59,352 bases of DNA from Welwitschia mirabilis (lineage: Eukaryota): NCBI GenBank assembly GCA_051453625.1, contig JBOZIK010000001.1:17946294-18005645 (forward strand). The letters are read 5' to 3'. A model generated the notes under the pieces. That model saw only the letters and a program-made list of their open reading frames with translations. It made no database searches and was not told where the DNA came from. Shown here one piece after another: positions 13,235-42,300 of the stretch (position 1 is its first letter; every line of letters begins with the position of its first letter). The position numbers and the translations under genes are program-made.

Positions 13235-16200
13235 TGTCATACCACACATTTTGTAAACCTTAATTACTTGGATATTAAGCATGTTAAGCTTTTAATTAGA
13301 TGATGAATTCCTCTTCTTTAAAAGCCTTGTTTAAATAAAATGATATTTTTGGTAATTTACCTTAATTTTATAGTTTTCATAATTCCATGTAAAAATAATA
13401 ATAATAATTATGTGGTAAAAATTTTCATAACAAAAGCTATCCAACCAATTCAAACTAGATAAGCCCATTATATAAGGAATTCAAATAACACCATAAAACT
13501 AATATATTGAAAATTTCAAGAGGACATAATAATGTATTCTAGATCTTATTTACTCAATATAAATTCTTGATAAATGTGATGGGTATACTATATTATGAAT
13601 AGACATTTGCTTCTTTATGTTGTGTAATTAATGGATTCTATACATTATAAAATAAATAAGCATATGAATAAGTACATGTACTATTACCTGAACTCAAGAA
13701 TGATAAATGAGTAAATTTACTCTTCCATAACTTTTTATCTTCTTGAGATGTGCAATGGAACTTAATTTATAACATATTTATCATTTTGTTCATTAAAATT
13801 AAAGAGTTTATATCATTATGCTATATGAAATTTTGAGATTTTTACATTTATTCTTTTGATGCATGTGTTGGATGAAGTAAACATACATACAAGCCTAGGA
13901 AGGACTAAAAAAAAACTAACATAAGGAAAATATTAAATGTAATTAATCTTGTCAATTAAAGTAAGAAAATTACTTACCGTAGTTAGGTGTATGAGTTATA
14001 AATATGATTTTCTTTTTATACTCTAATATCACTTTTTACACATTTTACTTATCAATGATAAATCATGTGATCTTATGATCTTGAATAATGTGTCTTTTGT
14101 TTATCTATATATAGAGATCCTTTGCTCTCTTGCAAAAAAGAGGAGATACTTTATATATTCCATGTAAGTGCATTTCCTTCTTTCCTCTCTCTTTCTTTTT
14201 ATTCTCTTGCTTGTGGAGCTTGGAGCTAAGAATTCTTGAGCTTGGAAATTCCATCGTTAACCACCAAGAATTGACTAATCTTTCTAAGTACGTTATTTGC
14301 TCATGTTATTCATGTGGTCTCTTTTAAGATTCTAGTAGAATGATATAATTTTGCATTAGTCAATTATTTATGATTTTCATTAAATTATATTATAAAAAAT
14401 TATTCCCTTCTATTGGCTTTCACCAAGATATGGAGAGATATGAGTGGTCTCTTATGGTAGGTGATTGAGGTTACTAATAAATGATTATGACTAAGCAATA
14501 AAGGGGTTTAATAAAAGAAAAAAAAAGACCTTTAAGTATCATGTCTTTTAATATCATTATACATGATATTATATTTTTTGTTAATTATGTATTAGATCAA
14601 TATTTTTATTTTTATTTTTTTAAAGAGATAGCGAGAAGGTAATTTGTGCCATATAAATGCCCAGTGGCATTTGGTTTTATGAAATCTATTCCATTTCTTG
14701 TGTTCATTGCCACTATTGGGATTTGAACTCTGGACCTTTGGGTCCATGTTTCTCTGATTTTATCACTCTAGTAAGTAGTTATTAACTATCATGTCAATCT
14801 TATTAAGGATAAACGTCTAATCCTCAAAAATCTTCTTTAGGCTAATATTCCCTCATCATAATCATAAGGCTCATTGTGAACTTTTTGTGCATTGATTTTT
14901 CATTTTACATTGATTTGTATTAGTCATATTTACTCAAGATATATTGTAAATAATTAGTTTATATAGTATATTCATTATTTTACTAATTCAAATTATTGCA
15001 TAACTAGTTATAAAATCTTTATTATGTTTTTATAGTGAAAGTTAAATTTCTAGAATAGAGGCATAGGTTAAGAACATCATATCTCATTAAATAATAGGTA
15101 TAAATTAGTGAAAAAAATTCGTAATTCTATAATTATATTATGATTGTGAAAACTCAAAATTAATAATTTTTTATGCATAATATTTTTTTAAGAAAATTAT
15201 TTATGAAATTAAGTTAGGAAGTAAATGCAGATAGTAAGCAATTAATTTATGTTTATAAAACTAAAAATTAAGCTATCTAAAAACTTGAGCATCCTAATTT
15301 GTGGAGAAGTAAATAATATTTTCAAAACATCTTGAATTATTTAAAAACTCAAACTATTTTGAAAGTTATGGTCATTTTAGTGTAGCACGGTAGAACTGTA
15401 ATTTTAGAAACTTTGACAGTTTTTAACCTTAAATCATGACCTTATACATAACATTTTTAGAATTCTAAAATATCTCCTCTTATAAGTCTAGTTTATGAAG
15501 AACTTACTTTAATTTATTTTTTAATCATATTAATTAATTATTAATTTTTTTTATTATAGTGTCTTCTTAAATCCCAAAATGTTTATAACTAATGTATTAA
15601 ATTATAGAAAAATATTTAAATAAAATTATTTAAATAATTCTAGTAGATAAGATAATTTGTTATAAGTAACCTTAAGTTACATTACTTAGGAATAGTATTT
15701 TATTAAGAGCAATACCTCTTTTACCTTTTTCTTTTATCTTACTATGAATATGTATGTTTAGAAGGGTTTCCACCTTAGTAGTTTAAGTAGTAATGAATAT
15801 TTCTTGATTTATCACTTATTTTCATGACTTATTGTTGCAAGGCCAAATTGGCCATATTTAACATCGTATTTGAGCATGATTTTAGGTCAAATTAAATAGG
15901 TTCATCGAAAAATATGGAAACTCCATCAAAGCTTAATGATCAATAGAAATCAAACAAATTTTTCATTGTATTCAACTCCTTTGTTATTTTAATTGAAGAC
16001 TCATGTATGCTATCCTATGAGAAGATGATTAGAATGGGCATCGCATCATCTACTTAGGAGTACTTCACATTGCAACGATCACAATAGAATCCATAATAGT
16101 CACATAAGATCTAAGGGCTGCATTCAATCACAAAAAAGGCATTAGAAGCCAAAATCACACTTGAGTTTGATGATCAAAAAGGATGGAAGCAAGAACAGTA

Positions 16201-19066
16201 TATTATCCAATGTATCCTTGCTTTAAAACTTGGAAATTAAATATATACCTTTGATTTTACAAAACACACTTGTGTAGTATGATCAACCCAAAATGTCATA
16301 CTCTAGAGAACACTTGCGAAAAGGGAATTAGAAGATTGATTGAAAAAAGATGAGACAAGTTCTGTAATTTCTGCTTCTTTCAATGAAAAACTAAATTAAC
16401 AACAATGCAAATGTGAATGCAATGGATAGTAATGGAATGAAATGAAATGCAATGCAATTGAATTAATATAACCTAAATACAAATATTAACTAAATTGTTA
16501 ATCTAATGTCACATAGATTATTCCTTCTAATCCATATTAATTAAAATAATGTCACTAAATTGCAATTAACATGAACTATAAGGAATAAAAGAAAATTTTT
16601 ATAAAAGTAATACAATTCAATCAACTTTGTTAATTAATCAAATTGTCATATATCCACTTACAAGTAAAAGTTCCTCCATGCAAGAATCACAGCCCAATGC
16701 GAAGGACACCTTTCTCACAAGCTAAGATAGATCCCTTTACCCCTTGAATTCCCAACGCATCACAAGTTCAAGATGTACAAAAAGTTGGTATAATGTGATT
16801 TAAGGGGGTTTCTTTATAGTGTAGGGTCAGCAGTTGGTTGTACTAAAGATTGGAATGTGAAAAGGCACAATCAAAACCAAAATTGTTATAAGGAGATTAA
16901 TTTTTTTAATAAATAATTAACCATCATCCACCTGATGTCATTCAAATGATAAGGTGGACGATGGTGCAACTTCTTCTTAATGCTTAACACCTATCCAACT
17001 TCATGGTTGATGCATAGTCCTAGCTGCCATTAGACGATATGGTGTATGACAGACTTAAATCACTATATATGCAAGACACATGATTATATGATAAAGGATT
17101 TGTTTATTTATTGACCGAGGTATCATCTGGATGATGAGGTGGACGATGACCTTACTCTTAGGCCTTTCTGTTGGAAAAGTGCTAGTAGTCATTTGGTGAT
17201 GTCAGCTAAACAAGGGGACTAATGACACACTATTCTGGCTTCCATTCTTCTTGATCATCAACCCCGAGTGTGATTTTAACTTTGAATGCCTTTTTCATAA
17301 TTGAATGTATCCCTAAGACCTTTTATGACTATTATGAATTTTATTGTAGTCGTTGCGATGTAAAGTACTCCTAAGTAGATGATTTAATCCCCATTCTAAA
17401 CATCTTCTTACAAGGTAGCATAGATAAGTCTTCAATTAAAACAAGAAGGGAGTTGAATACAATGAAAAATTTGTGTAATTTTTATTGATCATGAAGCTCT
17501 GATGGAGTTTTCATATTCCTCGATGAACTTGTCTAGTTTGACCTAAAATCATTCTAAAATATGATGTTAATTATGGCCAATTTGGCCTTGCAACATAGTT
17601 TCCCACTTAGACTTGTCAGTCTTTTGCAAAGTGAGAGGATAATTCTAGGTTGCAAACCAAATTGGTAAGGATAATTATTTATTGAAATGCATAAATAAAG
17701 TTTGCAAGTCTTTCCATATATGTTTCTAGTCAATATGGGCTTAATACAATATGTTCTTACAACAACTGAGAAAGATCATGTGTTATCCACTCTATCATTT
17801 GGACAATGATGGGGATGATAGCCTCTTTTTTTTTTCTTTTTTTCTTTTTTCTTTTTTTTTTCTTTTTTTTTGGCTCAAAAATTGATTCGTCCCTGGTGAA
17901 TAAGTGTCTAAAATGCATAACTTAACATAAAATATTAGACGCACATGATTTTTCTTATATTAGTTCCCCCACTTAAACATTTGTCAAATCAACAAGGTAA
18001 AATGGAGTGCTATGTAAATAAGATCATTTATGATATAGCTATGTGAGTCTTGGATAAATAATTATTTCTTAATAATCATTGTTGAGTTGTATTTCCTTCT
18101 ATTTATTTTTATTATACATAACCATCGAGATTGCTATATGATCATCGAAGAATGCTNNNNNNNNNNNNNNNNNNNNNNNNNNNNNNNNNNNNNNNNNNNN
18201 NNNNNNNNNNNNTCTGATTTGATACATTTTAAATATTTTTATTATTATCGAGCACAATAAAAGAATATTTCTTGTATTTAGATTTTCATTACTATAACCT
18301 TAAATATAAAGATGTTCGAGTATGCTTGTTTTCTCTTTGTATGATTATTTCTATAAAATAAGCCCAATATTTTGACTAGGTAAATAATTCATTAAATATC
18401 CATGCTAGTTAGAATTATATGCATACATTTATATGGTGTATTCATCGAACTAGACTAAATGAAGATAATCCTAATAATGATCATCCCTATACTCAGATTT
18501 CATCACCAAGGTGAGTTGCATTGCATTTTTTCTAATACACTTCTGGAAGTGGATTTGATCACCACTCTTCTATCCTACCCATGTACGAACTTACTCTGAC
18601 TTAATATCTAGAGATGTTTCAAGGGAGCAGGGTTCATTTGTAAGCATGTATCAACCTTGCATACTGTCTGTCACCTATATTGAAGGTATATTAAAGTGAG
18701 GTGTAAGCCTATGACAATGAGCCCCGCCATATTTGTATAATGTAAAACTTAAAGTACAACTAACAAGTTTACATTCTGCACTATATACAAGATATTTCTC
18801 TATGTAATTAAAAACTAGGAAAAAGTAGATGATATAACCTCATGACATCGTTGTTATTTATAATTCAAAATAACTTAGAAATTAATTATAGGTAAATATA
18901 TGATAACAATATGATTTTTTTCTCAGAATATAAAAACACTAATAAAGGAATAAGTAAATTTTGATCTTAAGATCTATTGTGTCTAATAGTTAATAATATT
19001 AATAAAAGAAGAAAGAAAAGGGGAAAAATAGTACCTAACTAGGGTAAGAAAATTTAGGGTGTTACA
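13235..19066 (+). repeat. Tekay-like 3' LTR (~3.6 kb excluding the nested 2.2-kb insert)
   Basis: TGTCATACC after the PPT, ending GGGTGTTACA. Homology to the 5' LTR breaks at 15832 and resumes at ~18027-18032. Confidence 0.85.
15833..18026 (-). mobile_element. Nested Athila-like fragment (family B: 3' UTR, PPT, LTR) capped by an inverted copy of its own LTR start
   Basis: Absent from the homologous 5' LTR. The minus strand reads AAGTGGGAAACTA|TGTTGCAAGGCC at 17595. 17596-18026 is similar to ~20953-21390. 15833-16206 is an inverted copy of 17222-17595. Confidence 0.7.
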
Positions 19067-19819
19067 CATACATCATTTTACCATAAGGTATTATCATCAA
19101 CACAAAACATAAGAAAGAAGATGTCATAATTGAATGTAGTACACTTAGTTTGTTTTTTATCCACTTCTTTTATCAAGTATATTAATGATTTACTTTTACT
19201 AATAAATTTTACCTTCTTAAAACTTAAATGAAATACATTAATAAATTAGTAATACAAAGATGCCATTTGTCATTTACGTGAATATTTTAATATTAAATGT
19301 TAATTTAATCATTTTTCCATGTAAATTTAATGCATTTTAATAACGGAGTTGTTTGATTTTAACATATAAATAGATTTTGCTTATTAATTTATTTTCTCAT
19401 TAAAAATATTTTTTATAAAATAATTATCCTTATTATTATATTTAATCAAAATTATCAAAGTTATAAACAATTGCTAGATAATTAAGATTAATTACTTAAA
19501 TATTATAAAAGTATCTATAATTCAAAATTAAACATAATGTATATCTTTGATATAAAAAATATAAGATGTTATTTATTATAAAGCTAGATATTAGTTTCTG
19601 TAAATTCTCTAATGGAAGAAGGATTTCATGTTAAAAATTTAAAATCAAAAGTCATATAATAAAGAAATTAACATTTCTAATATTTGAGTAATTAAAAGTT
19701 TACAAAATAGGGAATATAACATTTACTTAATGATTACTTCCACTTTAAGTGATTCTTAGAAAAGCAAAAGAATAAAAGACATTATTCTTTAAAAAGGACT
19801 AAATAAAACAATTAGATTG

Positions 19820-21413
19820 TAAAGGGGAACATGCATATAGCCATGTTAAAATGTGCATTAACATGTGCTTCAAATTCACTTATCTTATTTGATTAATATC
19901 CTATAATCTTTCAATATCAAATCCACCTAAGTATACACTAGAATAGGGAGTCAAATCCAATGTCATAAACTAGGAAGGAATTCAATAATTATTTAGAAAA
20001 TTGACTCGTACAAAGAAAAAGGTGTCGTTATTCTTTTGCAAATTAAGAATGAAAAATGAAATAATAATGCAATGAAGGATTGGTTGCAATGTATGTGAAA
20101 TGCAATTAAATCACAATGTGATGATTAAGTTTAATCCTAAATGTAATTAACTTATGAATTTTACTCTTTGTCTATATCAAAACTAAGATTAATCTAATTA
20201 CACATTAATTTGATTTCAACATAAACTATAAGGTATAGAAGAAGAAATAATTAAGAGAAAATCAATCAATTTTCCTCATCAAAATGTAACAACATCCACT
20301 TATAAGTAGTAACTTCACAATAAAGAAGTCTCAATCTTAAGTGATCATCCTACTAGCTCATCTAGATGATGATGATGGATAATTCTCAAGTTTTTAAATA
20401 ACTACCCTTAGTATGCGTTTCTAATATAACTACTACTTGTCATTCTCTTAGCTTCATCTAGATGATTATGGTAAACACCTATCTGAAAATAGATTCTAGT
20501 TTCTATTGGATTCTATTGAGAGTCATGCTCCTATCTTTATCTAGAAGACCTAATGCATGAAGCTTTGTTCCCATCAAGCACATCTCTAGACATCATCCCT
20601 TAATTCAAAATTGATTTCTTAGGTCCCAAACTATTATAATCATACTTTATATATCTCCATTAGTCAAGTGAACGCTTCTATAATGTTGTGATGTTACTAG
20701 CTGAAGTGCTTCTTATGTATGACACTCTTTGAGATGGAATTGCCTATCATTTTGGATTTATTAAAAGGAATCATAGATGGATCAGTCCTTAAAAATCATC
20801 TAAAGAGTGTTAAAAAGTGATGTAAAACTATACATTTTTCAATTATCATAATAACTAAGTCTAGTTATCATAATTTCCTCATGAACCTATCAAATAAGAC
20901 TAAACACACACTCCAAAATCATGTTAAATATTACCGATTTGGCCTTACAACATAGCCCCTCATTGAGAATTTTTTAGTCCCTAACAAAATAAGTAGATAA
21001 CAAGTAGTAAACCAAATTTACAAGATAAATAATCTAATTAATCATAAAAATGAATTTCAATAACTTTACAATCCAAGTTCAATGTGATAATTTAGTGAAT
21101 CTCCTATCCATTAGTTGATATAATTCATGTTGGACTTTTATTAGTCTAACTTCATCTAGATGACTAGGTATACAATGATTAATTAAATTAGTTTTAAGAA
21201 TGATTCATCCTCTTAACTCCTGTAGAACACACATGGACCTTAATAATGCCTGTGAAAACCTTCTATAGTTATTGTATGACAAGTACTCCATGAAAATAAT
21301 TAAACAACATTATTTTCCTATATTAGACTTCCACTATACATTTGCCAAGGATGACAATAAGAGAATGGAATTCTACTTAGATAAAAATCACATTGAAAAA
21401 AAATGACATAGTA

Positions 21414-21472
<59 letters not shown>

Positions 21473-23470
21473 GTCAAGATTTGAGTATAAACATCAAATA
21501 AGGCATAAGAGATATTACAAAATTCCATATAATGGTGATAAAATGCTAATATAATGATCAATTTCAATGAGGAGATGTCCTAAATAGTACATCGACATCT
21601 AGAGGAGGAGGTGGTGGTAATAGTGCTCACTCCTCATTCATTAGAAAGAAGAAGCTCACATACTTGTAAATGGCCTTGATGGTCTCAACATGTTGAGATC
21701 TAATCTCCTCCGGAAGTTCATTGTGACACTCTACTTGATATTCACCACTATATGCTTGATGGTTGTAACTCTTCCTCCAAGTTATCCATCTTCTAATTAA
21801 TCTAGTCCTTCAATCTCTACTCCACACCTACAAGTAGTGTGTGCATCTGTTCAAGGATAACTCCTCTAATAACACCTACTACAAGGTAACTCTCTGGGCC
21901 TATGGCTACTTTGGCTCTCTAAGGACCTAGATGTCCATATCCACAAGGTACCTAATCATAGTATGTAAATGATTTTAAGCTTGTATACCTATGGCTTTGG
22001 TATGCCATACATCTAGAAAATGGTTAAAAGGAGGCATGCAAATTCCAAAGTCTATGTAGATCAAATATTTACCATAGCCTATAGTGCCCCCAAATGAATG
22101 ATGCTAAATCCATCTATTTTCCTTATCAAAAAGTAATCAAAATCTATAGGTGNNNNNNNNNNNNATCATATAATGGTGGTGATGGAATGATGGACTAATG
22201 TTATGTATCAATGCCTTGTGGAGTACTTTGAATGCTAGTAGCAGGTATGTATCAAACAGTCCACAGCGATCTCCTATAGCATCCTATTGTATGTTAAGAA
22301 CAGTTTAGTATGCTAGTTAATCTTCCTTCTAAATATATGAATGTGGATGGCTCCTACACCATCCAAACTAGTAACCTGATTAATGTGCTCAAGTAAGATC
22401 TGCACGTCCTAGCCACAAACCATAGCTCTAATAGCATCTTTAATCTCTCCATGGTCTCCATATTAGAGCTCAATATGCATGATTTTATAAAGGTCACTGA
22501 TTTTTCTAACTTAGTGTGATCTGTGGACATGTAAGAGCCATTTCATCTAGATGTAGATGACACACTGGTCTACCTCTAGATTCAATCTCTATATGAAATC
22601 ATTGGAGTTTCTTTCTAGCTTGATCATTGTATGGACCCCCACTTCCCCACTTTCCCCCTCTCCCTTGCTTCCTGCCTCTCTCCCTCTCTCTCTCTTCCCC
22701 TCTCCCACTCCCTCCCCCTCGGCCACCACCCCAACCCCCACCCCCCTCTCCCCTCATCTTTGCGAAGAAGGGGTGTCCAATCCTCTATTTGGAAAGAGGT
22801 CTCAACTTTACTAACCTATCTAGCTTATGCACATGTCCATGACTGATTAAATAATACATGTGATGCATATACCATAAGAATATATGTCAAAAACATTACC
22901 TCATATAATTATGTCAAAAATAAGCCATAAAACCCAAAAAATGTGTCTTCTAAAGTTAAAATTTCTACCAAAAATTATGAAATGTATTTCTATCCCCTAC
23001 TAATTAAACCAATTCATGTTGAATTATGTGAAAAATAGGAAAGGAAAGGAGGAAAACAGACAATTAGATAAAAAGTGGTATAAAAAATAAGCACATGTAT
23101 TTATCATGCAAACTTAAGGCTAGAAATGAAAATTATGAGATGGTAGAAAGGTAGAGAATGTGAATCTAATATTTTGACGATAATTATGTAAAATTTCATT
23201 TTGAATTGAGAGAAACAATAGCATTTAAGCTAAAATCCTAGTTTCTAAGGAATTTAAGTCAAAATTACTAATTTCTCATAAAATATGTGGTGAAATCATG
23301 AACCATTTGAATCAAAACAATAGTTAGGAAAATTTAATGTTGCTATGTATAAACTATGTCTTTAGAGGCTCTAAAATACGATAAATAAGCAAATATAAGC
23401 TAAAAAGAGAAAACACCTCTCTTTTTAATGATAAAAAATTTTAATCCAGAGAAAAGGGGACATACCCTTT
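19820..23470 (-). mobile_element. Degenerate Athila-like Gypsy 3' half (family B LTR ~19820-20952, PPT, env-like/accessory ORF remnant)
   Basis: Minus strand TGAGGGGCTA|TGTTGTAAGGCCAAATCGG at 20952 resembles the LTR start at 17595. Minus translation of ~22350-22500, LYKIMHIEL*...AIRAMVCG*DVQILLEHINQV, resembles the FY..M...VRG..I.....IN pattern of Athila env-like ORFs. Outer boundaries are approximate. Confidence 0.55.
21416..21470. repeat. Compound (TA)n(CA)n microsatellite
   Basis: Directly visible. Confidence 0.95.
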
Positions 23471-23503
23471 TGGAATTCTAATTTCTTTAATGGTAAGGAT
23501 CTG

Positions 23504-24113
23504 TTGGACTTCCCAAAGCTTAAGAGGACAAGAGAGGAGTTAGAAGTTCTAACAAGGAGCAAGCTTAGAAATTATTGTAATCTTTCGATGAAGTATCAGG
23601 GGGAAGATAGAAAAATAAAAGAGGTAATAATAGCCCTAAGAAAAATTTTTCGAGGAGTGGAGTTAGCGCCTAATAAAAAGGACATCTAGCTAATTGATGG
23701 GGGTGGGATCTCTACAAAGGTGACTGTAATAAAGAAGTATAGTAGTAATAAAAGCATGGTAGGCACCTGGAAAACAGGGGCCACAAGCAAGTACGTTGTC
23801 CTCAAATGGCTAATTAGAAAGAACATAGTGCTACAGACGGTAAGATTGAGCTGTTGCGGTGTAAGAGTCTCGAAGGAATGTCAAGCATGTGGAGGGGCAA
23901 AAATGGTGCGGCGCCTATTCTAAGACTACCCCTTCGCGATCGAGGTGTGAAGGATAATAGACAAAAAGGCCACCTGGGAAAGAGCTCTTAACGCAACTCA
24001 CAAGGGCTACAACATGGCGCTTTGGTTCATTTGGAAGGCAGGAAACAACCACATTTTTTCACGGTGGCAACGAGCACGCAAAGAAGGGACTCCCTCATCT
24101 TGAGAAAATTGAA
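23504..24113 (+). pseudogene. Non-LTR retrotransposon ORF2 C-terminus (zf-RVT zinc-binding region)
   Basis: One frame with in-frame stops: KDI*LIDGGGISTK...WKTGATSKYVVLKWL...RLSCCGVRVSKECQACGG...RLF*DYPFAIEV*R...ALWFIWKAGNNHIF. This matches the plant L1 pattern WK...K..F.WL...RL..RG...C..C...HLF..CPFA..VW...W.IWKARN..IF. Confidence 0.8.
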
Positions 24114-24134
24114 GCTCACTAGGTGATAAAGAGG

Positions 24135-25378
24135 ATGGGGAAGCATCCCACTATGAGGAAAGAGAATACGAAATGTAGAAGCAAGAAGGACCTTTAGCAT
24201 CAAATGCAGCACATGGGGTGGGAGACGTTGGTAAAGTTAAAGGGCAACCCGAGATTTAATTCGATCAAAGCAATGGTAAAGGGGAAGCTTCTGAAAAAAA
24301 AAAAGGAGGAGGATTCTGGTGACTCTGAATCTGATTGTGCGAGCCACGCGTCTGAGGGAAAAGGGAGGTTTGGTGCTCCCCTCTTTCTATGGAAACTCAG
24401 ATGCGGATTGTTTTCTTGGACATAGGGCACCTAAAAATTCAAAGGTCACATTCAAAAAGCAAAGCTAAAATAGGTGTAGGCCCTGGTCGTGGAGTTCATG
24501 AACCAATTCATCGTTCAAAAGGGGAACCGAACAATAAAGGGCTCCACTTCAATTTCCTGCTCGCATTGAGAGAACAATGACAACTCAACCCTCCGCTATT
24601 CTTTGCCAAGAAGCTAAAAGGGAAGTTCAATGGAAAGCACTTAGGTCTTATTTGCAGGCTGAGAGAGTTCATAAGGAAGAGGAAGCGGATTTCAAACAGG
24701 CTCAACAAAGACGAGAAGAAAGAGAAGAGGGTGAGCACATTGGAACCTGAAATCCCATCAATTCCAGGGGGCAAAAGAGCCCCTCGCTAGAAATTCGTGA
24801 GGACAGGAGCGCTTACAAAGGGAGAAGAAGTGAAAGAGCCTGAAGCGAGAGTTCGTGAGGATCTCAACCTTATTCCAGCCAGTTCACCGAAAGGGAAGGA
24901 AGCTGAAGCAGAGCGTGAAGCCTCATCTGACTCAGAGGTAATTGTCTTACGTGACAACGAGGGCAAGGCAAAACCAAGTTCTCAACAAAATGAACAGCAG
25001 TGGAGGGGTGATAGGAAGCAAGAAGGGCAAGATGGACAGGAGCATTCAGAAGATCAGACACTTCACAGGAAGACAAGGAGGAGAGTCCTGCAAGTAAGCA
25101 TAGCATAACACTGGAACTCAATTCTCTAGCTGCGTAGACTATTTCAAAATCCTGGGTGTAATCAAAGAACGTCAAGACAGGAAATCATCTCTGCTCATAC
25201 AAAGCTCGCTTTCAAATGGCACTTGGACAAGAATAGACACAGGGCAGCAGAGGCAGCAGAAAAAATGGTTAAAATCAATAACGCGAAAGACCTTCTAACG
25301 GATGATGATGCGTGAAGGGCTTATAGTGAGGAGTTCTTCGTTCAGTTGGTCAGTAAATACACAAGGCAAATCTATTGA
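24135..25378 (+). pseudogene. Decayed ORF (~410 codons): retroelement accessory-ORF-like N-half, charged linker, C-terminal DnaJ J-domain
   Basis: Possible start MGKHPTMRKE at 24135. 24389-25378 is largely one frame with stops explainable as CGA/CAG/CAA deamination. J-domain at ~25121-25330: IL/SCVDYFKILGVI/RTSRQEIISAHTKLAFKWHLDKNRHRAAEAAEKMVKINNAKDLLTDDDA*RAY, where / marks a frameshift. Confidence 0.7.
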
Positions 25379-26019
25379 GTGCTCTTGTCAACCGATTTTC
25401 TGTTGTCATGTCTATTCATGTGTTTTTCTTTTATTATCATGTTTGTTGTTTATCATTTCTCTTTCACATTTGTGTTTTTGCAGCTAGGCTCAACCCAGAT
25501 TTTACATGTTTTGGTTGGATCTCGGGCATGCAAGAAGTTGCTTCTGCAAATGAACAATTTAAATCTTTGGTTTTCCTTCCAGCTGTCTTGTTGATAGCTT
25601 AGTTTCAACACCCTGTGTTTGTATGGTTTTTTTAAGACAAAATGCACAACCCTTTTTTCAAAAATAATAATAATAATAATTCATTCGTAGAATACACCCT
25701 ACGATTCTTTGATGAATATTGAGTGTCAACTTACAAGAAAAATGCTATGTTGACCTATGACAAAAGGAAAAAAACCATTAAAGATACCATCAATGTTTGA
25801 GGATATTTCATTATATAAATAATGTATTGTAACTGTTTACCAAAACCTTACAATCATTCTACAATAAAACCTAAAAACTAGGTTTTTTGAGCTTGATGCA
25901 TTCACCATGGAAAAGGACGTTGTCAAAAGGGTGAGGTGGGTGAGACATACTTTTCTTTAGAGTGGGTGACACGGTACTTTTTGGGGAAAGGTGTTTGCCC
26001 ACTACTATTGAAGGGGCCA

Positions 26020-26422
26020 AACAACAAAAAAGGACAAAAATAGATCAATCATTTCAAGATGGGAAGACCTCCACTAAGACCATTAGGACCTTGACAAGAA
26101 AGATGTGAGCTTGTAGGGCTCATTATAACTGAGCACCAAAAAGTTAGTAAGGCCGACTGTAACGTAGTTTTGATTCAGGTTTTGGGTTTCATTGTGTAAA
26201 GGTTCAGCTCTGTAAAAGACGATTAACAACAAAAAACGACAAAAATAATCATTTCAAGATGGGAAGACATCCACCAAGACCACTAAAACCATGACAAAAA
26301 AGATGTGCACTTGTGTGGCTTATTATACCTGAGCACCAAAAAGTCAATAAGACTGACTGTAACTTCGTTCTAATTCAGGTTCTGGTCTTGATCGTGTAAA
26401 GGTTCAGTTCTGTGGAAGATGA
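26020..26422. repeat. Tandem duplication, ~205-bp unit x2
   Basis: AACAACAAAAAA.GACAAAAATA...AATCATTTCAAGATGGGAAGAC...GTGTAAAGGTTCAG starts at 26020 and again at 26225. Confidence 0.9.
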
Positions 26423-26993
26423 ACAGACCAGCACTGCTGAAAGTGGAAAAAATCATTTTACTGAAATACAATCCTTCTAATTAAAGAAGAATTTATTACT
26501 TTCAAGAAACATAGAAACAAATGCAGCTTCCTTGAAAGAAATAATGGCAAATACGACATTTCCATTTCGGTCAAGGAACAAGGAAGATTCATAACAATAA
26601 ATATAATTGGAAACCCATTTTCTATGTTCATCATGACGGTAATGGATGATCACTCCAAGACATAGTTTATGCATTTCTAATTTTCAGCTGAAATTGGTCA
26701 TGCAACGCTCGAGTGCCAATTTGGGATGATCGAAACAAAAGGAAGTGAAGATTTTGCAGAGTTCAGATTTTCTTAATTCAGAACGTACATACAGTTTTCA
26801 GGCCCTCCCTCTTTCCAGACTATTTACATATTCATATCTGGAGAAGATTGTGGAGCAGATTTTGAATAAATTGTCAAGACCGTATTTACAGAACCATGAA
26901 CCATAAATAGGAACCCGTAATATTAAGAGGGTTCAGATCTGAAAGCATCATAATAGTTTTGATGCCTGTACAAAGATAAGAACGGGAGAATGA

Positions 26994-27161
26994 TCAAGCA
27001 AAGCTGTTGATGTGGTTAGAATAGTCAAGAGTACCTGCCCCCTCCCACCCCATCCATTCTTCCCATTCATCCCAACAATCCATATTCACTCCCATTAAAT
27101 CCTCAACATAGTAATCAGGATAGCTCTGATGCTGCTGTTGTTTGAAGCTGGCCAATAGAGT
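26994..27161 (-). CDS. J8: Chloroplast small J-domain protein J8-like, exon 3 of 3 (55 aa + stop)
   Basis: Polypyrimidine tract + CAG acceptor (27164-27162). Encodes TLLASFK...[26 protein letters not shown], the Trp-rich C-terminal motif of Arabidopsis J8/DJC22-type proteins. Confidence 0.93.
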
Positions 27162-27277
27162 CTGAGGGCACAACAACAAAAAAAAAAAAAAGAGAAAACC
27201 AAAAATGGTTTAAAACCAAAGAATGACTAAAAGTTTTCGGTTCTGAATCTTAAATCCACCAGAAGAAAGAAACAAAC

Positions 27278-27346
27278 CTCGTAAGCTTGATTGATTCGAT
27301 TAAAACTGACGCCGCAATTTTCTCCTTTGCAGACATCAGGATGATA
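27278..27346 (-). CDS. J8: Chloroplast small J-domain protein J8-like, exon 2 of 3 (23 aa)
   Basis: TTTGCAG acceptor and GTTTGT donor. Encodes YHPDVCKGENCGVSFNRINQAYE with an intact HPD motif. Flanking introns are phase 0, 88 and 116 nt. Confidence 0.93.
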
Positions 27347-27434
27347 CTGCAAAGAGTACAAAAATGTGATGCAAATGAAAGGCAAAAAATGCTGTACCTA
27401 GAAACCCTAGCCAAGGCTCAGATTTAGCACTTAC

Positions 27435-27659
27435 TTGCAGAGCAAGACGTCGGAAGGCCCTTTTAATGTCCTTTTCCGAAGCGCTTTGATTCACTTTCAG
27501 AATTTCGTATTCCTCCTTGAGAGGAGCCGAACTTCGCACAGAGGAGACGGCCGCGGCGCGAACTTTTATCCAATCTTTGCGGTTACGGCCGTTCCTTTCT
27601 GCTAATCCATTTCCGCAGAACGGCTTTACAGTCACAAATCTCCCAGCGGTGATCGCCAT
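27435..27659 (-). CDS. J8: Chloroplast small J-domain protein J8-like, exon 1 of 3 (75 aa; transit-peptide-like N-terminus + J helices I-II)
   Basis: ATG at 27659. Arg/Ser/Ala-rich N-terminus with VRA, then YEILKVNQSASEKDIKRAFRRLALQ and a GTAAGT donor at 27434. The spliced product is 153 aa with no internal stops. Confidence 0.93.
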
Positions 27660-27699
27660 GCCGTTTCCTGAAACCGATCACGGAAAAGAAATAAACTTA

Positions 27700-28450
27700 C
27701 TTCGCTGCGCTGAAACCCTAGGTCTCTGAAACCCTAACAAACAGAATTCGAAAAACGGAGCAAGATTTGACTCGGGTTGAAGGAAAACGAGATCAAGAAA
27801 AGAAAGATAAAGAGAAGCAATAATACTGCAATGACACAAGGAATGGAGGAGTCACAGGCAATAATGGACGGTCGACGCTGGTTTAAATAAGAGACCTTCA
27901 TCAATGAAAGATTCTTCTGTGGACAAGAACAAGTCGCGAAACTTATCCTCGAAAACTAATTTACAGAAGCGTTCTTGATTATCCGATTAAAGAAAGAGAA
28001 GGAGCGAACGGAAGCCGGTAATTTACAGCCGCTACAATCATTGGGCGCACTGTTTGAATCGCATTTAACGGAATATTCCCCTGGTTTTTGTGTCAAATTC
28101 TGTGTACGGATCATTGCGCGGCTTGAGATCTGGTATTTACTCCTTTACTATCGACAATTTATTTTCCTAATTTAACTTAATTAGAGGTCTTGCCTTATCC
28201 ATTTTTGCAACCGTGCTTTTGCTGCGTCGGATCCACGTGGCAACCGACGCGTTGCGTTTGCCCGGTTCTTACGTTCAAGAGATAAGCCGCTTTTGGTGGT
28301 TATCCTTCCCGTCTTCTTTTAACACGTGAAAGGTCACTGACACGTCAAACGCACTTTATCTGGGACAACATTGGCCCTCTTCCGAAGGTTGCCTTATCCG
28401 AAACGCACTGAAGCTTGGAACGGCAGCACTCCACATTTAGCGTTATTCAC
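27700..28450 (-). promoter_or_regulatory. 5' UTR and proximal promoter of the J8-like gene
   Basis: CpG-rich relative to its surroundings. Telo-box-like AAACCCTA (~27713, ~27729), TATA-like TATTTAAA on the minus strand (~27882-27889), G-boxes CACGTG at 28234 and 28323, TGACACGTCA at 28338, and several GATAAG/CTTATC I-box-like motifs (~27941, 28194, 28281, 28393). Confidence 0.65.
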
Positions 28451-30823
28451 TATTTAGAAATCAATTATGATATTATTAGAATTGTAAGAGTTTTTTTCGT
28501 GTCATTTTCAACTGGCAAAGGAGTACTACTATTAACACATGGAATTAATAGAATAATAATGTGATGGGATTGGATATTTGGTCAAATACAACTCTTAATC
28601 ATCTCATCTTTGAAAGTGGGGTCATATGACTTTTAAGGTTAACATCATCTTCTTCTCTTTTTATCTTTTATTTTTTATTCTTCTTTTTTTTTTCTTTTTC
28701 TTTTGTTGTTATTTTTGTGTAAAATTATTTCATTTTTGAAATTCAACTTGTACGACACTTAATGTTAACTTCCTCTTTCTTCTTATTTTATTCTAGAAGA
28801 TAAATTACTTTTTAATGCACACGTAAAGTTATCCAGTTAGATTATCCATTTATAGTCAATGGAGTATTAGTTGGGCTATTGGCACACTATGAGGCCTCGG
28901 GCATAATTAAACGTTTTGTTTAGGTAATTGTCATGGCTATATTTTTCAAAGGAGATATTGTCACTAATAATTTTAAGTTTGACATCACCCCTAAATTATT
29001 AGTTTGTAAATAAAGTAGAATATAACATGTGCTGTAGAATTTTTTTAACTTTATTTTCACCTATGTCAGAAGTTTTTATTTTACATTATTAANNNNNNNN
29101 NNNNNNNNNNNNNNNNNNNNNNNNNNNNNNNNNNNNNNNNNNNNNNNNNNNNNNNNNNNNNNNNNNNNNNNNNNNNNNNNNNNNNNNNNNNNTACATTAT
29201 TAACTAAAAGGATGAGGCCATCCAACCCACCTGTTTTGTGAAAGGAAAACAATTATTTTTCTTGTATAATATCAACTTAATAAAAAATATAGTAATAGAA
29301 AGTAATAGAAGAAAAACATTGTTTTTGAAAAATGTAACTTTTTTATTTATAAAATTGGGAAGCTATTATAGCTAAAAAGTAAGTAAGATCATGCAACAAT
29401 TAAAAAAGAGAGTTATCCTTGCAAGGATTTCCATTCTTCATAATATGGAGCATCTTGGGGTTCTTTGAATATGCATATCAGTTTTTTTAAGACTCTCATG
29501 ATAATTCCATTCAATTAATATATAAAGATGAGCATAAGATATAAAGAGGATTTTCTCAAGTATCTTAGCTTTAGCTATACACTTCAAATGGGTACAATTC
29601 ATAACATTGTCACGATCAGGTATGTCACCATTCCTTCAATTGTCTAGCATTTGATCTCTTATCTCATCAAGCACATCATCTTCATTAGATAACAGTGCAT
29701 CCCACAGAATACTAATCTAAATAAAAGTCTCTTTGAGTTCAATTTGGACTTAAATCCCAACTTATCTCTATGCAGCTCTTTAGTTAAGGGTCGTGTTATA
29801 CCCACATGATGAATTTTATCATGTTACACTACTTATCTTAATGAATTATTCATAAAATAAGGTACATTAATTTTAAATTAGCTTAACATGGAGATGATAA
29901 AGTTGATATGTATATTGGTAAATTTTTCAGATGGATTTTGAGCATGAAGTTTTGTAGAATAACATGCACCATTGTTTGCATGGCTTCAAGCAATTAAACT
30001 TGCAATTATTAGCTCCTAATATTTTAGGCATAATTCCTATTAGTTTATTAAAATCGTCTTTTAAGAATCTAAGCTTAGTTTCTCATTCCATTATTTATCC
30101 CTCAATAGTATATCCAATGACACCTACTACAATGAGATTATTAGCATATTCTCTAGTTCTATAGACCCAAGTTCCTTGTCCATCTCAATTATGTAAAAAC
30201 TCTTTCGATGTGTTTTAATCATGTCTAAAAAGGTACTCCACTAATTTAGTCTATCCTATCATAGTAAACAAGCTTTATCTTTAGTCATTATCTGATAAAA
30301 TAATCTGAAAGAAGGGTTCCACTCTTTGTGATTCTTTCATGAAATAATAATAAATCTGGTGAGGGTTTTGAAGGTGTGTAAATTTTTTGCATAGTAAGAA
30401 TGCATTATCAAAGTGTTTTAGTAGTATGAAAGATAAGTATGAAGAATAGGCTTCATTGTGAAATGTGTCAAGATGCTGGTCTAAAGGCAATATAGAATAG
30501 AGATGTTATATCGATGCTAGAGGAAGTTGCATAGTGATACAATCATAAGATGTGACAAGCATGTAAGCAAGTATGATAATTATGGGAAATCTAATCTTGA
30601 TAGTGATGTTACTAATTATACTTAAATGCGAAGGTTGAAAAACTATAAAAGAACATATCTAAGATTTAAAGGTTTGAAGAGCAAAGAAAGTTATAAGTAA
30701 AGGGATGTAAAAGGATAATATGATGGCAGAGTTATGATTTTAAGAGGGAAAAAGGGAGTATAATGTTGGATAATAATAAAAAACAGAGGGATGAGTAAAT
30801 AGGTGATTTTTAAAACACATATG

Positions 30824-38590: not shown

Positions 38591-39273
38591 TTAAAATTCA
38601 TCATGTGAATATTTATTCTATCTAAGTAAAATGTAATCAATTTCATGATATGAAGGAATAAAATAAACAAAGGAAAGAGGAAAAAGAAAGAAAGAAACTT
38701 AAGAAAGTGGACTTCAAACTTTTCAAAACCATTAAAGTAATTAAAATATGTCCTAAAAATAAGTATTAGAATAAAAAGTTCAAGAACAAGAAATATCTAT
38801 TAAACCCACCTAGAACCAGACTATTAATAAAAATCTAAAAACATTACAGTTAATTCCACTTTAACCAAGAATATTAAGAAAACTTAAAAATTAAGAAAAA
38901 CCAGATTTGGTGTTTTAAAAGTATTCTAAAACTACTATAATATTATATCTTAAATTTCTAAAAATATGTTAATAATGATTAAAAAATTCATTATTCAAAA
39001 ACTAAAAGATTAAGATTTCGCATATTCAAAAGATTTTGAGTAAAATTGCAACATCAACTGTAAATTGTTAAAAAGGGGATTTTAGAGATCAAATTTGAGT
39101 TTTGGTGTCTTGACCATGCAAATTTATAAATCATGATAGGAATCCACTAATAAAGTTTTAAAGCAATTAGAGCTGTAGAAAAAAGGTTATAATCAAAACA
39201 ATCACTAAAATTCATGAGTTCTACTTCAATTTGAGAAAAGAGGAGGAGGGAGGAAGAGAGAGGGGAAGAGGGG

Positions 39274-39276
<3 letters not shown>

Positions 39277-39342
<66 letters not shown>
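39277..39342. repeat. (AG)n microsatellite abutting an assembly gap
   Basis: Directly visible; followed by an N-run at 39343-39859. Confidence 0.95.
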
Positions 39343-42300
39343 NNNNNNNNNNNNNNNNNNNNNNNNNNNNNNNNNNNNNNNNNNNNNNNNNNNNNNNNNN
39401 NNNNNNNNNNNNNNNNNNNNNNNNNNNNNNNNNNNNNNNNNNNNNNNNNNNNNNNNNNNNNNNNNNNNNNNNNNNNNNNNNNNNNNNNNNNNNNNNNNNN
39501 NNNNNNNNNNNNNNNNNNNNNNNNNNNNNNNNNNNNNNNNNNNNNNNNNNNNNNNNNNNNNNNNNNNNNNNNNNNNNNNNNNNNNNNNNNNNNNNNNNNN
39601 NNNNNNNNNNNNNNNNNNNNNNNNNNNNNNNNNNNNNNNNNNNNNNNNNNNNNNNNNNNNNNNNNNNNNNNNNNNNNNNNNNNNNNNNNNNNNNNNNNNN
39701 NNNNNNNNNNNNNNNNNNNNNNNNNNNNNNNNNNNNNNNNNNNNNNNNNNNNNNNNNNNNNNNNNNNNNNNNNNNNNNNNNNNNNNNNNNNNNNNNNNNN
39801 NNNNNNNNNNNNNNNNNNNNNNNNNNNNNNNNNNNNNNNNNNNNNNNNNNNNNNNNNNNGTAGAAGGTTGAAAATTAATGTATATTATAGAAATGAATAT
39901 GAATGAATAATAGATAAGGCTACTAAAGCTAGTACATAGAGAAGATAAATTTGGAAGAGAAGAAATGAGAGAGAAATATGGCTAGAAATTCCTTTCAAAG
40001 AAAAATAAAGCATAAAAATGGAATAACTAAGTTTGAAAGAATGTACTTATCTTAAATACGACTTGAATGTTTACTTTAAAATTTGGAAGGGGAGGTGGAT
40101 TTTACATAGAGTAACTTAGATCAATTTCAAGTGAGGTAGGTGTGAAAATGCTTGATTTTCATCATGGGTTTCTTATTTGCAAAAAGTGAATAATTGCATG
40201 GTGTTACATGTCAAATTACACTAAAAAATGGCATTATAGTGTCTTAGGTAGTTACACTAGTAACCAACCAAAAAAAAAAAAAAAAGGAAAAAAATCCAAA
40301 ATTACAACTTAGCTTAATTACCTTACTCAAGGCTAAAATTACGTGAAAACATCACATTTGATTAAAAAATGCAAATGCAAATTTCTGATGTACTGATTTC
40401 CTAACAAAATATGATATGNNNNNNNNNNNNNNNNNNNNNNNNNNNNNNNNNNNNNNNNNNNNNNNNNNNNNNNNNNNNNNNNNNNNNNNNNNNNNNNNNN
40501 NNNNNNNNNNNNNNNNNNNNNNNNNNNNNNNNNNNNNNNNNNNNNNNNNNNNNNNNNNNNNNNNNNNNNNNNNNNNNNNNNNNNNNNNNNNNNNNNNNNN
40601 NNNNNNNNNNNNNNNNNNNNNNNNNNNNNNNNNNNNNNNNNNNNNNNNNNNNNNNNNNNNNNNNNNNNNNNNNNNNNNNNNNNNNNNNNNNNNNNNNNNN
40701 NNNNNNNNNNNNNNNNNNNNNNNNNNNNNNNNNNNNNNNNNNNNNNNNNNNNNNNNNNNNNNNNNNNNNNNNNNNNNNNACTGATGTCCTAACACAATAT
40801 GATATGCTTTGATGTTATGCATCTAGTGTTAAAATGAGTTATAATTGTAACATCAGCAAGTGAATGAAACATGCTAATTAAAAAAGGACTATGAATCATC
40901 TTAGAACTCAATAGGTTAAATTAGTCTTTTATGCTTGGCATGTCCAATTATATCATTTGGCACTCATCAAATTTCTAATTTTCTTATCTCTTGAAAAGTA
41001 CAAGCATACCTCAAAATGTAGTATGATAATTCTAAAATGATTTAAAAAAATAATTATTAATATCTTATTTTATCAAACTTTAACCACCAATATAAAGCAA
41101 TCCTTTGGCAACGAAAAGGGTTTATGATGGATAGAATGAAGTGAAAGATTATGCTTGAAGTTATAGTTTGATTAGTCCATAATTTCATTCTTAACAAAGA
41201 CTTTAGTATCGATAAAAAATAGAGGATTAGATTTGTAAATGATGAATCAAATCCTATGAAAATGAAAATAGTTAAAACAATCAAACTAAATAAGATGCAT
41301 CACATAGCATATGGGTATTACATTATGCTAATTTATTTAAGATAATAAAATTAAGTATAAAAGTACTCTCCACAAAACTCCCTATGAAGTAACTCTTTAA
41401 AATTTATTTATTTAATAAAAATGTTAAAAGCACCTTATATGAGGTTTACAACAAAAAGTATGTAAGACTAGTTGAACTTTCTAATCAAACAAAAAAATAG
41501 TTCAAACAAAATTTTAGAAAACCATGTAATAAAACAAACAACTTCAACTAGTAGATTTCTTAAGCATTCTACATCCAACAACCATCAAATGAGAAGTATC
41601 TTTGCACTTAGAACTAAGCTTAATAATGAAAGTACCTAATAATATAATTAACTCTATTCTTGAAAAAATGATTAAGATCCATAGCTTACTGCTTAAAGAG
41701 ATAAAATTAAACAAAAGAGCAAGATTACTAATGTAGGTATTCAAAGTTGACCATAATGAGTCTGATGCCTCAAATTCAAAAACATGTACTATAAGAGCAT
41801 AAGGGGAAATGAATAAGAAAGATATTTTAATTGTTAAAAGTAAATTTTCAACATCTTTTGATAAGGGTTGAAATTAAAATCTATCCATATTTTAGATATG
41901 ATTGGCACAAAGAGTTATGATAATTGACCACACATTTTTAGAGGATGACATTTCTAAAACTTTCAATCAATTCTATCCTCCTATAAAACTTTGACAAATA
42001 TCTATTAACTTTGAAAAGGAATGGATCTAACTAGTAGCTCTTCAAAATGCTTCATACTTTTTCATTAAAATAAAATTTTTCAATGTCCAATAGCTCATGA
42101 CAAGGAGGACTGACATTGAGAAAAATCATCTCTAAATCCCTAACTTGTGATTACATAAAATCTTTTAGTAACATAAATTTGAACTTTAAAATAAATCACT
42201 TGAGACCTCTTTCTATTTTAAAGTGGTAATACTTTTATCTTGTTAAAGTTGGATTTAAATTATCACAAGTAACTCATTCCAAGCTTTTTTCTTTACATTA

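Follow-up and report, generated by a model that had tools for sequence, protein, structure and literature searches.

Results

Organization of the locus

The locus considered here lies in a window of 59,352 nucleotides (nt) of Welwitschia mirabilis DNA (contig JBOZIK010000001.1), by which we mean the whole stretch that was analysed, an AT-rich and gene-poor piece of plant-like DNA in which N gaps are present. Its forward strand carries what appears to be the decayed tail of a long interspersed nuclear element (LINE), a run of A and a gene-like segment that contains a broken DnaJ J-domain, the domain of the Hsp40 co-chaperones, and these features belong to a repeat that is present in many diverged copies. 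The reading that we put forward, and to which we would give about an even chance, is that the J-domain is real, dead in the window copy and a passenger there, a host J-domain exon having been copied with a LINE-associated repeat. The features of the repeat, in window coordinates, are the following.

23435-24103, + strand: decayed 3' part of LINE open reading frame (ORF) 2, in one frame with three internal stops and ended by a stop at 24104-24106
24295-24306, + strand: run of 12 A, seen in the sequence
24307-25093, + strand: purine-rich (A 34%, G 27%), highly charged, coding-like stretch with stops and frame changes
25094-25129, + strand: stretch of 36 nt, GTAAGC...TCTCTAG, with two in-frame stops, delimited on sequence
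25130-25352, + strand: J-domain, an exon-like unit of 223 nt (Pfam DnaJ match, tblastn, splice-like borders)
25353-25483, + strand: intron-like stretch of 131 nt, 49% T, beginning with GTAAAT and ending with TTTTTGCAG, delimited on sequence
25484-25602, + strand: last-exon-like ORF, in which the J frame is open for 39 codons once the intron-like stretch is skipped
25603-25680, + strand: A/T-rich terminus of the repeat, finishing in an (AAT)n-like tail (about 25655-25680), placed by sequence and by a drop in contig depth

A degenerate J-domain

A DnaJ J-domain hidden from the list of ORFs had been proposed at this site on an earlier inspection of the sequence (hereafter, the original prediction), and profile searches bear this out. 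The stop-to-stop ORF 25130-25312 (+) matches the Pfam DnaJ family (PF00226) over profile positions 7-57 of 63. The E-value is 4.3e-9, and the score of 36.8 bits exceeds the curated threshold of this family (27.8). P0001, a read-through of 24581-25378 with stops written as X, is matched over profile positions 7-62 of 63 (E-value 7.8e-9), and the match is still significant (E-value 1.5e-7) when 9.7 kb are read through as 3233 residues. Among solved structures, the J-domain of DNAJC5 is nearest (E-value 1.1e-5). The match over profile positions 7-62 of 63 and the succession of helix II, loop and helix III (KLAFKWH-x-DKN ... INNA..LL.D) are those of a canonical Hsp40/DnaJ protein, from which the window copy departs by its HLD motif, its frame break, its stop and an identity of at most 53% to any protein found, none of which singles out a plant family as its parent.

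The His-Pro-Asp (HPD) motif of the loop that connects helices II and III is required for the stimulation of Hsp70. In the window it is replaced by HLD (CAC TTG GAC at 25220-25228), and a TGA at 25313-25315 occupies a position that is usually K or R in alignments of J-domains; both changes had been called beforehand and both are present in the sequence. The head of the domain (VDYFKILGV, from 25131) and its body lie in different frames: in tblastn with 36 J-domain proteins, the head aligns at 25119-25184 and the body, in another frame, at 25130-25375, with a break between them at about 25159-25166, and the reading frame through the domain is interrupted by this break and by the TGA. Of the two frameshifts originally proposed, this one stands, but the N-terminal one (about 25129/25130) coincides with the acceptor-like ttctctAG and need not be a frameshift. 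Given these defects, stimulation of the Hsp70 ATPase by the window copy seems unlikely.

The LINE fragment and the A-run

Upstream of the J-domain lies the segment 23435-24103, which we take, from the motifs that flank its zf-RVT region, to be what is left of the C-terminal end of ORF2 in a plant LINE. The zf-RVT match falls in 23690-23923, with an E-value of 2e-4 and 22.4 bits, below the Pfam cut-off of 27.5 (E-value 0.007 in the long read-through). The linkage of J-domain and zf-RVT that had been proposed is hence upheld as regards the presence of a zf-RVT-like match upstream and on the same strand, but the match is weak and below the cut-off. Read-through Pfam searches found neither RVT_1 nor any other family upstream, at 16001-23400 (+), and no reverse transcriptase or further family in the read-through frames of 16001-25701 (+) or 18001-26702 (-); since no reverse transcriptase domain lies upstream, the LINE piece appears to be 5'-truncated. 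When the read-through of the LINE tail was compared with longer proteins, none of 307 candidates was related, and the word search retrieved no LINE protein. An RNase H remnant considered after zf-RVT was dropped, Pfam giving no match. The run of 12 A at 24295-24306 may mark an old poly(A) end of the LINE, or it may encode lysines in a charged ORF that could start at ATG 24274.

A many-copy, diverged repeat

DNA contigs of the organism of the window (X4) and of a second organism (X5) were aligned to 23000-28000 at a likeness of at least 80%; the resulting summed contig depth is not equal to copy number, and the counts of differences come from the 40 of 701 variable places that were listed. Summed X4 depth is 17-172 in all 15 bins of 23000-25504, falls at the end of the repeat from 16 in bin 25505-25671 to 5.6 in bin 25672-25838, and from 25672 to 28000 stays at 4.8-6.3 in 13 of 14 bins (11.9 in the other). 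From 23000 to about 25500, X4 and X5 contigs stack 3-35 times above the unique flank. Depth in X4 reaches 47-172 over the LINE fragment, versus about 5 in the unique flank, and 19-81 over the charged stretch; the J-domain bin (25171-25337) stands at 135 in X4 and 82 in X5. Most aligned X4 pieces (375 of 464) are less than 90% alike to the window. Letters other than those of the window are carried at 25170 by at least 18 X4 and 8 X5 contigs, at 25331 by 12 and 9, and at 25133 by 11 and 5, respectively, and 35 contigs differ from the window at 23763, in the LINE block. One other copy bears small deletions over 25220-25230, exactly the H-x-D site. The J-domain sits in a dispersed, many-copy and diverged repeat. 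Blastn and tblastn found no further copies inside the window.

Two additional observations concern the extent of the repeat. X5 contigs also match this very locus, at 23000-24137 with no differences and at 24120-24743 with two, and such near-identity indicates that the insertion is common to both organisms. The AT-rich DNA to the left of the LINE fragment (23000-23434), which may be a different repeat, is many-copy as well (X4 summed depth 42-167), so that the left boundary of the repeated DNA lies beyond the aligned stretch.

Linkage of the LINE tail and the J unit

Among the X4 contigs listed, at least six match to the left as well as to the right of the A-run, with order and strand preserved. 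Their joints over the A-run lead from 24142 to 24327 (one contig), from 24287 to 24441 (one), from 24149 to 24629 (three) and from 23830 to 24710 (one). A single contig ties the zf-RVT region to the J region through three successive joints (23830 to 24710, 24747 to 24818 and 24841 to 25165), and in a contig of 1390 nt (record 5), matches to 24441-24818 and 25117-25385 follow each other in window order at a similar spacing (325 versus 299 nt). It would seem from the contigs that match on either side of the A-run that other copies also have the J unit behind the LINE ORF2 tail, and the two are likely to be colinear there. In the long pieces listed, 69 of 373 and 56 of 294 letters differ from the window in the LINE part, and 68 of 378 and 48 of 269 in the J part; this divergence of about 18% in both parts fits a single amplification history. 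Within the single long second copy listed, the J part diverges as its flank does (48 of 269 versus 68 of 378 letters). An X5 contig of 444 nt (record 12) matches 24108-24286 and its match ends just before the A-run though the contig continues, as befits a LINE end located before the A-run.

Exon-like anatomy of the downstream segment

The longest ORF within the charged stretch (24791-25108) is in the frame of the J-domain body. No Pfam family was found in the charged stretch, which had no match among 1.84 billion representative proteins and gave no usable match in the Protein Atlas; the idea that this upstream region encodes a gag-like protein, which a motif had suggested, was dropped when Pfam returned no match. 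The 36-nt stretch that follows is possibly an intron remnant, too short for a working plant intron. The J unit itself is preceded by an acceptor-like ttctctAG (AG at 25128-25129) and followed by a donor-like CA/GTAAAT at 25353. No spliced RNA read was seen across the intron-like stretch 25353-25483, where RNA depth is at most 0.23. The last-exon-like ORF beyond it encodes a hydrophobic tail of 12 residues and ends with a TAG at 25600-25602. Spliceosomal introns are not expected in a native LINE ORF, and the exon-like borders of the J-domain and the intron-like stretch point to a putative captured piece of a host gene and not to a domain native to the LINE. The search for inverted or direct repeats that would mark a DNA transposon brought up only short, weak pairs, and Rfam had no match within 20000-29000.

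Expression

RNA depth over 24336-25504 does not exceed 3.5 in RNA run X17 and 1.7 in X20, whereas over a neighbouring intact J-protein gene the depth goes up to about 385 in X17 and 180 in X20. Some of the few RNA reads over the J repeat bear letters of other copies. The window copy is silent or nearly so, and another copy may give rise to trace RNA.

Relatives in protein and nucleotide collections

Word-based searches identified no relative of P0001 at near lengths (0 of 678 candidates) or of the J ORF among longer proteins (0 of 25 candidates). An exhaustive search of 1.84 billion representatives yielded 32 weak matches, all to the J-domain only, the best of which (E-value 4.1e-6, 53% identity) is not identifiably from a plant; two of the top ten clusters are named, a fish protein and a transcriptome ORF. 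No predicted protein with this J-domain was found in collections of 5.8 and 1.84 billion sequences. Among metagenome contigs, none of 377 pattern matches was confirmed, and two loci in viral contigs (L001 and L002) were discarded as spurious, for they cover only the out-of-frame query residues 1-14. The literature searched held no report of a transposon- or LINE-encoded DnaJ protein or J-domain, and the main text of reviews of gene capture and extra ORFs in plant retroelements is free of the terms 'DnaJ' and 'J-domain'.

Surroundings of the repeat

The intact J-protein gene mentioned above lies on the minus strand at 26700-27860, convergent to the repeat and only about 1.1 kb past its end. It is small and well expressed, with a chloroplast-type N-terminus and an intron that splits the J-domain, and it keeps its HPD motif (YHPD, in exon 27278-27346). 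Intron 27347-27434 is spanned by 271 spliced reads in X17 and 133 in X20; a second intron at about 27163-27277 is indicated by loose ends, and a rarer joint from 27666 to 27855 is seen in 14 reads. At 27329 (window G, a synonymous change in a Cys codon of this gene) and at 27747 (window T), all DNA contigs and nearly all RNA reads that span these positions have A, the result of an assembly error or a strain difference. Comparison of the dead J-domain with this intact gene by blastn and tblastn within the window reveals no detectable similarity, and their adjacency is thus probably due to chance.

Between the repeat and the intact gene, at 26020-26413, a 200-nt unit is tandemly duplicated (1.9 copies, 82% matches) at single-copy depth in X4. 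To the left, 22557-22846 is low-complexity and C/T-rich, with proline-, serine- and leucine-rich ORFs in several frames on both strands and no family match. The N in the window total 1256, as is typical of a draft scaffold; at 39147-39981 and 40339-40822, a GA/CT dinucleotide repeat adjoins a long stretch of N, after which comes a second such gap.

Discussion

The J-domain described here, its defects, its many copies and its linkage to a LINE tail in several contigs are direct observations. We infer a host origin, splice sites, a vehicle and an order of events, and it seems plausible to arrange them as follows. A piece of a host J-protein gene would have landed immediately behind a LINE 3' end; this piece would have included the charged region, one exon with the J-domain in full, an intron, and a short terminal exon together with the 3' end. 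LINE tail and host piece would then have been copied jointly, giving rise to about 20 or more diverged copies in this plant and a close relative. The likeliest vehicle would be read-through of a weak LINE end (3' transduction) or, alternatively, template switching during reverse transcription. The order expected from such a process is LINE tail, A-run, host segment and second A-rich tail, and the order in the window is LINE 3' end, A-run, gene-like segment and second A-rich tail. The copies seen to date all look like decaying relics.

That retroelements can capture host sequence or carry it along by 3' transduction is well established, with descriptions for plants and for human L1 (PMC13317346, PMC7264820). 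The arrangement in the window, with element end, A-run, gene-like segment and second A-rich tail, resembles the transductions that these sources treat in part for human L1, maize Bs1, tomato Rider and Arabidopsis TRIM elements (PMC13317346, PMC7264820), and here too a segment with exon-like pieces has been copied with the element. There are also differences. A host parent was not found among the proteins searched, nor a target-site duplication in the window, and the plant transductions named in those sources involve long terminal repeat elements, whereas here the element appears to be a LINE (PMC13317346, PMC7264820). Furthermore, PMC7264820 describes transduced ORFs as usually present in one or a few copies, unlike the 20 or so, or more, diverged copies of the present segment, and conserved extra ORFs as present in most copies.

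Several observations weigh against a passenger host exon. The identification of the upstream segment as a LINE is based on a sub-threshold zf-RVT match, and the A-run could be the Lys run of the ORF starting at 24274 instead of an old poly(A) tail. The splice sites are predicted on nucleotide sequence alone; an open phase after the intron-like stretch would arise by chance about once in three, and the same frame is also open across that stretch (ORF 25357-25602). No target-site duplication of at least 10 nt was found, the lone 9-nt match (at 21120) being what chance would provide. Other DNA may intervene between the pieces that are joined across the A-run. The depth of 135 in the J-domain bin peaks over neighbours of 31 and 27, and this could reflect past constraint on the J-domain. 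Lastly, the host parent gene was not found in searches against representatives clustered at 50%, where the decay of the copies and the clustering itself could hide it.

Other explanations account for parts of the same evidence. Two unrelated repeats might simply lie side by side, a 5'-truncated LINE ending at 24295-24306 and an independent J-bearing family extending from 24307 to about 25680. An A-run followed by a second A-rich tail is what two separate poly(A)-ended insertions would leave, the X5 match of record 12 stops just before the A-run, and contigs are more numerous over the LINE block (35, counted at 23763) than over the J block (18, counted at 25170). We nonetheless regard such a juxtaposition as rather unlikely, considering the X4 contigs, at least six, that match on either side of the A-run with order and strand kept, one of them joining zf-RVT to the J region, and the divergence of about 18% shared by both parts; besides, a host retro-pseudogene family of some 20 copies retaining an intron-like stretch would be unusual. 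It is improbable, in turn, that a DNA-level vehicle (a Helitron, a Pack-MULE, a CACTA-type capture or a segmental duplication) took up a LINE fragment and a fragment of a J gene with its intron and multiplied the block. The retention of the intron-like stretch, the many-copy DNA continuing to the left of the LINE fragment (depth 42-167 over 23000-23500), the lack of a target-site duplication at the A-rich tail and the frequency of gene-fragment capture by such elements in plants, as stated in a portion of PMC13317346, would all suit this course of events, but 20000-30000 showed neither terminal inverted repeats nor Helitron-like ends, no transposase or helicase domain was found on either strand, and the left boundary of the block falls outside the aligned 23000-28000. 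A single-copy processed pseudogene of a host DnaJ mRNA inserted beside a LINE fragment, the case that the original prediction had set against itself, agrees with the A-rich tail at about 25655-25680 and with the broken domain; what is found instead is many diverged contigs over the J-domain in two organisms, a retained intron-like stretch and no matching or close host DnaJ protein, and we consider this origin barely credible.

The most far-reaching alternative is that a LINE lineage encoded its own Hsp70 co-chaperone, either at the C-terminus of ORF2 or in a third ORF, and that the window copy is a decayed descendant. Such a J-domain might have recruited host Hsp70 to the ribonucleoprotein of the element or disturbed J-protein-dependent silencing, the present copies being decayed offspring, and the exon-like borders would then be due to chance or to an old capture that later became functional. 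In its favour, the J body has its frame and strand in common with the ORF2 tail and the longest ORF upstream, no host parent was found, and the J bin is the second-highest block of depth in X4 (135 versus 167-172 on the zf-RVT side), as a coding block conserved across diverged copies would be. LINEs elsewhere have gained extra C-terminal ORF2 domains, such as the viral-type helicase of insect R1/TRAS elements (PMC4686597, PMC5563155). We hold this alternative to be quite improbable, and the arguments against it are of several kinds: the splice-like borders of the domain and the intron-like stretch after it, 11 stops in the shared frame from 24104 to 25312, a J part as diverged as its flank in the single long second copy listed, another copy with deletions precisely over the H-x-D site (25220-25230), and no predicted protein with the domain in 5.8 and 1.84 billion sequences. 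No transposon-encoded J-domain was found in the literature searched either, which sets a low prior for an element-encoded one. The view of the original prediction that the J-domain belongs to a mobile-element family holds insofar as it lies in a many-copy repeat with a LINE tail, but a passenger host piece is the reading favoured here; nothing shows that the element encoded a working co-chaperone of its own.

Polyomavirus T antigens carry J-domains with a working HPD motif and demonstrated function. Like them, the present repeat is a genetic parasite with a J-domain, potentially able to recruit Hsp70; unlike theirs, its J-domain has the HPD changed in the window copy, and nothing comparable to their function is shown for it. 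Plant L1 LINEs with RNase H provide another instance of an acquired extra domain. The position of the J unit, downstream of the zinc-binding end of ORF2 and on the same strand, recalls the extra module of insect R1/TRAS LINEs as partly described in PMC4686597 and PMC5563155, but theirs is an in-frame domain that intact elements conserve, whereas the unit described here has splice-like borders and no intact copies are known. In Arabidopsis, the J-protein SILENZIO acts with MBD5/MBD6 in transposon silencing, according to a part of PMC8616336, and offers a parallel of a plant J-protein tied to the control of mobile DNA. Speculatively, such a tie could explain why a transposon might carry a J-domain.

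In kind, the phenomenon is one already known, host gene pieces being carried by plant mobile DNA, and there is a modest chance of something more unusual. If the repeat is indeed a passenger, it represents another instance of plant mobile DNA picking up pieces of host genes, in this case in association with a LINE, which has rarely been documented in plants; for annotation, about 20 J-domain-like pseudo-exons per genome would then be a practical concern, as spurious gene models can start from them. If, on the other hand, a LINE family truly encoded a J-domain, this would constitute a new domain architecture for non-LTR retrotransposons and a parallel, in a cellular parasite, to the J-domains of polyomaviruses, with a bearing on the ways in which transposons use or evade the Hsp70 system.

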